A stretch of DNA of 64,000 nucleotides, from NCBI RefSeq assembly GCF_003790525.1, contig NZ_CP033635.1, one strand, 5' to 3'. Source of the DNA: Escherichia coli (GTDB lineage: Bacteria; Pseudomonadota; Gammaproteobacteria; Enterobacterales; Enterobacteriaceae). Shown here piece by piece: positions 11,066-12,892 of the stretch; within the stretch, counting starts at the first letter, position 1; every line of letters starts with the position of its first letter. Position numbers and translations under genes: made by a program. Under the pieces are notes generated by a model. The model saw nothing but the letters and a program-made list of their open reading frames with translations, ran no database searches and had not been told where the DNA came from.

Positions 11066-12189
11066 TGCGCCATTTACGCAATATTTTTAATCTGGGTATC
11101 AAAGAGTTGCGCAGTTTGCTCGGTGATAAAGCGATGCTGACGCTGATTGTCTTCTCGTTTACGGTGTCGGTGTATTCGTCAGCGACCGTTACGCCAGGAT
11201 CGTTGAACCTCGCGCCGATCGCCATTGCCGATATGGATCAATCGCAGTTATCGAACAGGATCGTTAACAGCTTCTATCGCCCGTGGTTTTTGCCACCGGA
11301 GATGATCACCGCCGATGAGATGGATGCCGGGCTGGACGCCGGACGCTATACCTTCGCGATAAATATTCCGCCTAATTTTCAGCGTGATGTCCTCGCCGGA
11401 CGCCAGCCAGATATTCAGGTGAACGTCGATGCCACGCGCATGAGCCAGGCATTTACCGGCAACGGGTATATCCAGAATATTATCAACGGTGAAGTGAACA
11501 GCTTTGTCGCGCGCTACCGTGATAACAGCGAACCGTTGGTATCGCTGGAAACCCGGATGCGCTTTAACCCGAACCTCGATCCCGCGTGGTTTGGCGGGGT
11601 GATGGCGATCATCAACAACATTACCATGCTGGCGATTGTGTTGACCGGATCGGCACTGATCCGCGAGCGTGAACACGGCACGGTGGAACACTTACTGGTG
11701 ATGCCGATAACGCCGTTTGAGATCATGATGGCAAAGGTCTGGTCGATGGGGCTGGTGGTGCTGGTGGTGTCGGGATTATCGCTGGTGCTGATGGTGAAAG
11801 GTGTACTGGGTGTACCGATTGAAGGCTCGATCCCGCTGTTTATGCTGGGCGTGGCGCTCAGTCTGTTTGCCACCACGTCAATCGGCATTTTTATGGGGAC
11901 GATAGCGCGTTCAATGCCGCAACTGGGGCTGCTGGTGATTCTGGTGCTGCTGCCGCTGCAAATGCTTTCCGGTGGCTCCACGCCGCGCGAAAGTATGCCG
12001 CAGATGGTGCAGGACATTATGTTGACCATGCCGACGACACACTTTGTCAGCCTCGCGCAGGCCATTCTCTACCGTGGTGCCGGATTCGAAATCGTCTGGC
12101 CGCAGTTCCTGACGCTGATGGCAATTGGCGGCGCGTTTTTTACCATTGCGCTGCTGCGATTCAGGAAGACGATTGGGACAATGGCGTAA
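11062..12189 (+). CDS. yhhJ: ABC-2 family transporter permease YhhJ
   Basis: Start taken at ATG 11062 ([18 protein letters not shown]...), overlapping the rbbA stop TGA; 375 aa, hydrophobic C-terminal half. Confidence 0.85.
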
Positions 12190-12200
12190 GGAAGGGAAAC

Positions 12201-12250
12201 TTGACTTCATATTGTGATGTCATACTATTGATGTCATAAAGTGAAGTCAT
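12201..12250 (+). promoter_or_regulatory. Putative sigma70 promoter and operator repeats of the HicA/HicB-like operon
   Basis: TTGACT (12201-12206), 16-bp spacer, TACTAT (12223-12228); inverted repeat TGACTTCA (12202-12209) / TGAAGTCA (12242-12249) and direct repeats TGATGTCATA; AAGGA SD at 12251-12255. Confidence 0.35.
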
Positions 12251-12305
12251 AAGGACATGCCATGAGAACCCTGGTACAGGCTTTACGGAAGAAACAAAAA
12301 ATACA

Positions 12306-12536
12306 TTGGATCAAATATTTAAATCTCCTGTTCCTCAAGGGATTAAGTGGTCTGATATAGAGTCACTGGTTAAAGCATTAGGCGGAGAAATTAAGGAAGG
12401 AAGAGGTTCGCGTTGTAAGTTCATACTAAATATGAGCGTTGCGTGTTTCCATCGGCCTCATCCGTCGCCAGATACCGATAAAGGCGCTGTAGAAAGCGTG
12501 CGTGACTGGTTACTAAGTATAGGGGTAAAACCATGA
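12306..12536 (+). CDS. HicA-like toxin (YcfA/HicA family); TTG start as drawn, possibly frameshifted relative to an upstream ATG at 12262
   Basis: Core IKWSDIESLVKALGGEIKEGRGSRCKF...FHRPHP...VRDWLLSIGV resembles HicA-family mRNA interferase toxins; stop overlaps the downstream antitoxin ATG (ATGA). See finding on the A6 tract. Confidence 0.55.
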   Translation: MDQIFKSPVPQGIKWSDIESLVKALGGEIKEGRGSRCKFILNMSVACFHRPHPSPDTDKGAVESVRDWLLSIGVKP

Positions 12537-12892
12537 TCAAACTGAAGACGCCAAACTCTATGGAGATTGCCGGGCAACCTGCTGTTATCACTTACGTGCC
12601 AGAACTGAATGCATTTCGTGGCAAATTCCTGGGCTTGTCAGGTTATTGTGATTTTGTCTCTGACAGCATTCAGGGGCTGCAAAAAGAAGGGGAGCTTTCC
12701 CTGCGAGAGTATCTTGAGGATTGTAAAGCTGCGGGTATTGAGCCGTATGCGCGTACAGAAAAGATTAAGACCTTTACATTACGCTATCCAGAATCGCTGA
12801 GTGAACGCCTTAATAATGCGGCTGCGCAGCAACAAGTCTCTGTAAATACTTATATTATTGAAACGCTAAATGAGCGTTTGAATCATTTATAA
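12533..12892 (+). CDS. HicB-like antitoxin with C-terminal ribbon-helix-helix DNA-binding domain
   Basis: 119-aa ORF; N-terminal HicB-like region (YxGxF...EDCKAAGIEP) and C-terminal RHH-like TLRYPESLSERLNNAAAQQQVSVNTYIIETLNERL; AGGGG SD; overlaps toxin stop. Confidence 0.65.
   Translation: MIKLKTPNSMEIAGQPAVITYVPELNAFRGKFLGLSGYCDFVSDSIQGLQKEGELSLREYLEDCKAAGIEPYARTEKIKTFTLRYPESLSERLNNAAAQQQVSVNTYIIETLNERLNHL

Follow-up and report, generated by a model that had tools for sequence, protein, structure and literature searches.

A one-nucleotide loss from a coding A tract and the very probable conversion of a yhhJ-adjacent hicA toxin gene into a frameshift pseudogene in a clonal lineage of Escherichia coli

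The window analyzed here is a 64,000-nucleotide stretch of an Escherichia coli chromosome (contig NZ_CP033635.1) in which rbbA occupies positions 8330–11065 and yhhJ, the upstream neighbor of the region discussed below, ends at 12189. Between yhhJ and a sugar-utilization island lies a type II toxin-antitoxin operon, hicAB, whose two genes are both on the plus strand, the hicA pseudogene at 12262–12536 and the hicB antitoxin gene at 12533–12892; hicB is followed by a class II aldolase gene on the minus strand. The region 3′ of hicB is variable. In the window, in strain SMS-3-5 and in O157 it is an island with genes for the class II aldolase, an HPr-like protein and an FGGY kinase, and in CUVET19-1704, CFSAN029787 and Citrobacter nikR lies directly after hicB. 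Strain CS5L, which belongs to the same clonal lineage as the window (see below), has an IS1 element immediately 3′ of hicB that is missing from the window and from SMS-3-5. The Citrobacter gene order, rbbA-yhhJ-hicAB-nikR, suggests that hicAB is ancestral at the yhhJ site.

A consensus scan finds a sigma-70-like promoter at 12201–12228 (plus strand; TTGACT and TACTAT separated by 16 nt, 9 of 12 matches), and its position directly upstream of the hicA Shine-Dalgarno sequence and ATG makes it the putative hicAB promoter. Four operator-like half-sites of 8 nt, spaced 13–14 nt apart, lie here (TGACTTCA at 12202–12209, TGATGTCA at 12215–12222 and again at 12229–12236, and TGAAGTCA at 12242–12249), and together they form a 21-nt inverted repeat over the promoter, with arms at 12202–12222 and 12229–12249 that are 76% complementary. 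Operons of the hicAB type are known to be autoregulated (PMC11594946), and this array is probably the HicB operator. The hicB gene is intact and encodes 119 amino acids; its product matches Pfam HicB (PF05534, E = 3.5e-15) and has weak RHH/Arc/CopG matches at its C-terminus. Its ATG overlaps the hicA stop codon by 4 nt (ATGA), so that toxin and antitoxin genes are directly adjacent, and the pair is also present in Citrobacter and Serratia. The sequence GGGG at 12522–12525 could serve as hicB's own Shine-Dalgarno sequence. Over this stretch SMS-3-5 does not differ from the window, and its HicB is WP_000593555.1, a protein also encoded by loci in which hicA is intact.

The toxin gene itself lacks the intact ORF that is expected of the HicA family. 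An ATG at 12262, preceded by the Shine-Dalgarno sequence AAGGA (12251–12255, read from the sequence; 6-nt spacer), opens a frame (12262–12360, plus strand) that consists of 13 native codons and 19 out-of-frame codons, encodes MRTLVQALRKKQKIHWIKYLNLLFLKGLSGLI and ends in a TAG at 12358–12360. The HicA core (12306–12536, plus strand; codons 16–91 of the ancestral gene) is in the −1 frame relative to this ATG. It can be reached only from the TTG at 12306, which opens a 76-codon frame ending at 12536, and the sole Shine-Dalgarno-like sequence near that TTG is a GGAAG 14 nt upstream. The two frames meet in a run of six As at 12296–12301 (plus strand), the site of a one-nucleotide deletion from an ancestral run of seven within AAA CAA AAA AAT; the frame is broken after codon 13, and the gene measures 275 nt as against 276 nt for its intact form. 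The original prediction had described the two frames and their ribosome binding sequences correctly, and comparison with relatives bears out its further proposals that the A run is the point of the frameshift and that one added A would give a continuous HicA of 91 amino acids.

Among 5426 complete E. coli genomes the hicAB locus is present in 2073, always on the chromosome. Full-length matches in relatives are 712 nt long compared with 711 nt for the query, and in the alignment the extra base is the seventh A of the run. When tract lengths were counted with short queries that are independent of haplotype background, about 1250 of the complete genomes had seven As, none had eight, and no insertion in the run was seen in any genome of the census. 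Six As were found in 26 genomes, namely 24 with the window haplotype, the O157 strain AR-0429, and strain Res13-Sevr-PER07-33, in which the six As are followed by a C. The approximately 1250 A7 genomes have one ORF for a 91-amino-acid HicA, a single base different from the window arrangement, which is thus not a chance one, and RefSeq annotates it there as a single 276-nt gene for a “type II toxin-antitoxin system HicA family toxin” that starts at the equivalent of ATG 12262. The nearest haplotype, that of strain 2014C-3075, is the window haplotype with A7, and in a comparison of 84 nt that A is the only difference; its HicA protein (WP_001259770.1) has exactly the sequence of the repaired window protein. 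The intact orthologs are separated from the window gene by an indel that is not divisible by three and lies at the break point, the mark of a frameshift pseudogene.

The repaired 91-amino-acid protein matches Pfam HicA_toxin (PF07927) over residues 30–80 (E = 3.7e-9), and its homologs carry precomputed hits to the same family; NCBIfam and PADLOC scans of HicA (in its TTG and repaired forms) and of HicB gave no match. An AF2 model of the repaired protein, made with 66 homologs as input (mean pLDDT 91.6), has a predicted dsRBD-like alpha-beta-beta-beta-alpha core with helices at 30–39 and 74–86 and strands at 43–46, 51–56 and 59–64. A Foldseek search of the PDB with this small domain model gave no significant match; among its top entries was the Burkholderia pseudomallei HicA 6g26 (TM 0.60–0.64 on the target, rmsd 2.7–3.2, nonsignificant E of about 0.7). 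The single HicA relative detectable in a PDB sequence-profile search was 9svk, with a marginal E of 0.09, and a His-tag/MazE match in that search was set aside as spurious. Neither of these two PDB searches found a solved structure for a close relative of this protein. In the profile alignment R51 falls on the GSH histidine of the 9svk HicA, in agreement with the earlier observation that GSR replaces the usual GSH here. The motif (G49-S50-R51) lies at 12406–12414, and the canonical catalytic GSH histidine is absent; that histidine is essential in the HicA proteins of Yersinia pestis, B. pseudomallei, Streptococcus pneumoniae and E. coli K-12 (PMC11594946). G49 and R51 are invariant in alignments of both 24 and 66 homologs, and S50 is invariant in the former and present in at least 90% of the latter. 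The 66-sequence alignment of GSR-type HicA proteins spans several phyla, and in it FHRPHPSPDTDKG is nearly invariant; the later HRPHP histidines are conserved, in line with the earlier remark that the FHRPHP His is retained. The GSR-type proteins have about 29 extra N-terminal residues (window 12262–12348), predicted to form two helices, and they range from the Enterobacterales to the Acidobacteriota and Azospirillum. Judging from these alignments, GSR is an invariant hallmark of an apparently uncharacterized HicA subfamily and not a lesion. Several members of the family (P0053, P0059, P0061, P0079 and H130, the last from strain HH97) come from records that call them “hexulose-6-phosphate synthase”, evidently a propagated misannotation. 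The literature yielded no functional study assignable to the yhhJ-adjacent hicAB and, on HicA and frameshifting, nothing on this locus; the Gerdes survey of HicA contexts (PMC10865869) has nothing on GSR variants or N-terminal extensions.

The N-terminal part of this protein, which includes the codons at which the two frames of the window part, is conserved. Homologs in Citrobacter, Klebsiella, Serratia, Dickeya, Xenorhabdus, Pectobacterium, Sodalis and others are about 91 amino acids long, are encoded by a single ORF and align with the repaired ATG-start protein over its full length, including its N-terminus. The most distant ones (Azospirillum, Acidobacteriota and metagenomes) have 84 amino acids and begin with MKRKHQKTLEQIF, eight residues upstream of Leu16. 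In a DNA alignment of E. coli, Citrobacter and Serratia, the hicA ATG and the GG core of its Shine-Dalgarno sequence are invariant. T15 and L16 are invariant, or nearly so, among HicA homologs, and codon 16 reads TTG in E. coli; Citrobacter and a second E. coli allele have CTG at this position, and Serratia has TTA. Between genera, a comparison in which synonymous sites are saturated, pN/pS is 0.04–0.13 for codons 8–15 and 0.09–0.18 for the core, values that indicate strong purifying selection on codons 8–15, which are as constrained as the core. In the AF2 model the first 20 residues have pLDDT values of 91–97 and form helices 2–6 and 10–19 ahead of the dsRBD-like core, with Leu16 inside the second of these.

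The original prediction offered four accounts of the A6 run, an inactivating one-nucleotide deletion, a sequencing error in a homopolymer, slippage that controls toxin dosage, and a genuine TTG start, and the evidence selects the first. If the run were a sequencing or assembly error, the strain would truly be A7 and its hicA intact. Loss of a single base in an A run is a classic long-read error, and the two A6 singletons, AR-0429 and Res13-Sevr-PER07-33, could be such errors. For the window itself this is extremely improbable. A6 occurs on the exact 84-nt window haplotype in 24 independently sequenced complete genomes, which come from humans, chickens, dogs, a pangolin and river water and from many depositing groups, and which include SMS-3-5 (NC_010498), a Sanger-era finished genome of 2008 that agrees with the window at all of the 1484 nt compared. 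A segment of 24 kb, which lies 8–32 kb from hicA in the window, is ∼100% identical in exactly those 24 genomes, and the next-best genomes have 99.1% identity over it; because the A6 genomes coincide with this identity set, A6 is an inherited clonal marker and not a read error, since random errors would not track phylogeny. The deletion is real and is vertically inherited in one clonal lineage. It was also already known to public annotation, which records this hicA as frameshifted; the PGAP label “frameshifted” is present in all four of the A6 records opened (SMS-3-5, CS5L, Res13-Sevr-PER07-33 and AR-0429). Outside the lineage, A6 is found on two further haplotype backgrounds, at positions 701–975 of L006 (the Res13-Sevr-PER07-33 locus, in which roughly 35 of 1484 positions, the base adjoining the A run among them, do not match the window) and at 590–864 of L007 (the O157 AR-0429 locus). 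The A7 to A6 deletion has thus probably occurred on three or more occasions, though assembly errors may account for the two singletons. Since A6 is seen on two other haplotypes and A8 never, the tract looks as a deletion-prone homopolymer is expected to look. Its occurrence on at least three backgrounds does imply that the tract is mutable, and one could imagine a phase-variable contingency switch in which A7 (toxin on) and A6 (toxin off) interconvert at high frequency. Such a switch is scarcely credible, however, as length does not vary among very close relatives: all 24 lineage members are A6 with no revertant, the other approximately 1250 genomes are uniformly A7 with no A8, and other genera have no A run at all. 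Contingency tracts are typically longer than a run of six or seven bases.

The two remaining accounts have active toxin being made from the window sequence as it stands. In one, HicA is still produced as a 76-residue protein from the weak TTG at 12306 and the ORF that starts at the upstream ATG is a leader peptide. TTG is permitted as a bacterial start codon, the 12306–12536 ORF spans the whole Pfam HicA domain, and for the ATG-TAA allele described below, found in 793 genomes, PGAP begins the CDS at the equivalent CTG. Nevertheless this is very unlikely. Codon 16 is a synonymous leucine codon that varies among TTG, CTG and TTA across genera, and TTA cannot initiate; no homolog starts at the equivalent of TTG 12306, and even the 84-amino-acid forms keep a basic K/R-K/R-x-H/Q-x-x-T-L segment upstream of it; the codons on its 5′ side are as constrained as the core; Leu16 falls midway along a helix that is predicted with confidence; and GGAAG is 14 nt away from a site that would be traversed by ribosomes from the strong ATG. 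By these comparisons TTG 12306 is the Leu16 codon and not a start. Termination-reinitiation at this TTG was rejected, because the stop codon of the leader ORF lies 54 nt downstream of it. In the other account, a −1 ribosomal slip or an A added by RNA polymerase at the run gives rise to HicA. The evidence gives no support to programmed slippage as a control of toxin dosage: the split into two frames is a derived state that few genomes show, homologs in other genera are all single ORFs, and at the site of the run Citrobacter has AAA AAG CAA AGG AAT and Serratia AAA AGG CAA AAG AAC. The 0-frame phase at the run is CAA-AAA-ATA, so tandem −1 slippage was rejected; there is no X XXY YYZ heptamer, and the run of six As falls short of the 8–9 A/T taken as the minimum for a slippage site (thresholds from PMC1851650 and PMC1088944). 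Adventitious recoding, in which traces of wild-type HicA are made and the deletion is a knock-down rather than a null, is a possibility to be taken seriously, though it is less probable than complete inactivation. A plausible route is that peptidyl-tRNA-Lys slips from AAA 12298–12300 to 12297–12299 with the rare AUA codon waiting in the A site, and the slipped reading is exactly the wild-type sequence, KKQKNTLD. Runs of six As in E. coli give 25–60% −1 frameshifting if phased C-AAA-AAA, and single-tRNA A-AAA slips in IS1 and PVM occur at 0.3–1% (PMC1851650); in Salmonella, many frameshift pseudogenes yield protein at a low level and have been called “pseudo-pseudogenes” (PMC9122581). Against this, the phase here permits just the inefficient single-tRNA route, no stimulatory downstream RNA structure was found in 12296–12375 (MFE −11.6 kcal/mol, z = 0.17 relative to shuffled sequences), the upstream GGAAG is 4 nt from the run as opposed to roughly 10 nt in dnaX, and selection against transcriptional-slippage runs is evident in many bacterial genomes only at about 9 A/T (PMC1088944). 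Single-tRNA P-site slippage could plausibly leak about 1% or less, and since the layout is not conserved any such leak would be incidental and not designed dosage control.

The window lineage is not the only one in E. coli with a damaged hicA at this site. A second hicA allele is present in 793 of the 5426 complete genomes (793 of the about 2073 with the hicAB locus), and 791 of these share the same 99-nt sequence. The allele, seen for instance at 1542–1817 of L004 (CFSAN029787), begins ATG TAA and so has a stop as its second codon; it retains A7 and has CTG as the Leu16 codon. It is also without the 14 bp that correspond to window positions 12215–12228, which comprise one operator-like half-site and the −10 hexamer. 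PGAP annotates this allele as a 76-amino-acid CDS that starts at the CTG (WP_042014162.1), and its HicB is unchanged. Because the divergence between the second and the common allele is mostly synonymous (pN/pS about 0.08–0.10), the second allele was functional before the nonsense change. Three rare E. coli HicA variants (P0037, P0066 and P0074) have aberrant N- or C-termini and look like further frameshift lesions that have been called as ORFs. All but one of the loci checked encode the same HicB, WP_000593555.1. Together with the A6 events, these alleles suggest that E. coli often loses or silences hicA and keeps hicB. A stronger version, that the yhhJ-locus hicA is a recurrent target of toxin silencing with hicB kept unchanged, is distinctly improbable. 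If selection were involved, HicB might be retained as an anti-addiction factor or regulator, trace toxin might be retained through −1 slippage or noncanonical initiation, and the locus would represent a natural tuning of a toxin-antitoxin module toward antitoxin only, in a HicA subfamily without the canonical catalytic histidine.

The hicA gene of the window lineage is, then, very probably an ordinary inherited frameshift pseudogene created by the loss of one nucleotide from a coding A7 run. The ancestral E. coli gene has seven As within codons 11–14, and the ancestor of the SMS-3-5 clonal lineage lost one of them, replication slippage being the most likely cause. Ribosomes should still start at ATG 12262, leave the frame after Lys13 and stop at 12358–12360, and the product would be a 32-residue peptide that lacks the entire HicA fold. 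At TTG 12306, with no usable Shine-Dalgarno sequence and overrun by ribosomes from the ATG, meaningful synthesis of toxin is not expected. Because promoter, operator-like repeats and hicB are all intact, the antitoxin/repressor is probably still made with essentially no toxin, and we infer from the sequence that the A6 lineage has lost HicA toxicity and continues to express HicB. The lineage is too clonal to reveal relaxed selection on the hicA remnant. In inventories of toxin-antitoxin and defense systems, the yhhJ-adjacent hicAB of A6 strains should be counted as an orphan antitoxin and not as a functional system, and a frame broken at a short homopolymer warrants a check of the population before recoding is called. 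Beyond correct annotation the significance is small; the locus is of modest interest as a case of chromosomal toxin-antitoxin decay, with several independent N-terminal lesions of hicA, an unchanged hicB, and a toxin of the GSR-type HicA subfamily.

Compared with known systems, the locus most resembles the RHH-type HicAB pairs of Y. pestis (HicA3B3), B. pseudomallei and S. pneumoniae, with which it shares the toxin-first order and ATGA stop/start overlap, the HicA_toxin domain with its predicted alpha-beta-beta-beta-alpha core, the RHH-like C-terminal region of HicB, and palindromic repeats overlapping the promoter; it is unlike characterized HicA systems in its broken toxin ORF, in having GSR for GSH (PMC11594946), and in its about 29 extra N-terminal residues. 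The E. coli K-12 HicAB (yncN/ydcQ) belongs to the same Pfam family and has the same operon logic, but it is at a different chromosomal locus, its HicA has 58 amino acids with a GSxH histidine (His23), and the DNA-binding domain of its HicB is an HTH and not an RHH (PMC11594946); the window HicA has no close similarity to K-12 HicA, and the PDB profile search, with matches taken at E ≤ 1, gave no E. coli HicA chain. Programmed frameshift sites such as dnaX (A-AAA-AAG), IS1 insAB (A-AAA-AAC) and the 9A/9T IS elements likewise have an A run at the junction of two frames and need a −1 shift. In window hicA, unlike those sites, the split is not conserved, there is no in-phase heptamer, the Shine-Dalgarno-like sequence is misplaced and no structure follows, and the A6 run is too short for efficient RNA polymerase slippage. 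Ordinary homopolymer frameshift pseudogenes do not differ from it in substance: they show the same loss of a single base from a coding A run in one lineage, have intact orthologs and are flagged automatically, and the only peculiarity of the window gene among them is that it encodes the toxin of a toxin-antitoxin pair whose antitoxin gene is intact.
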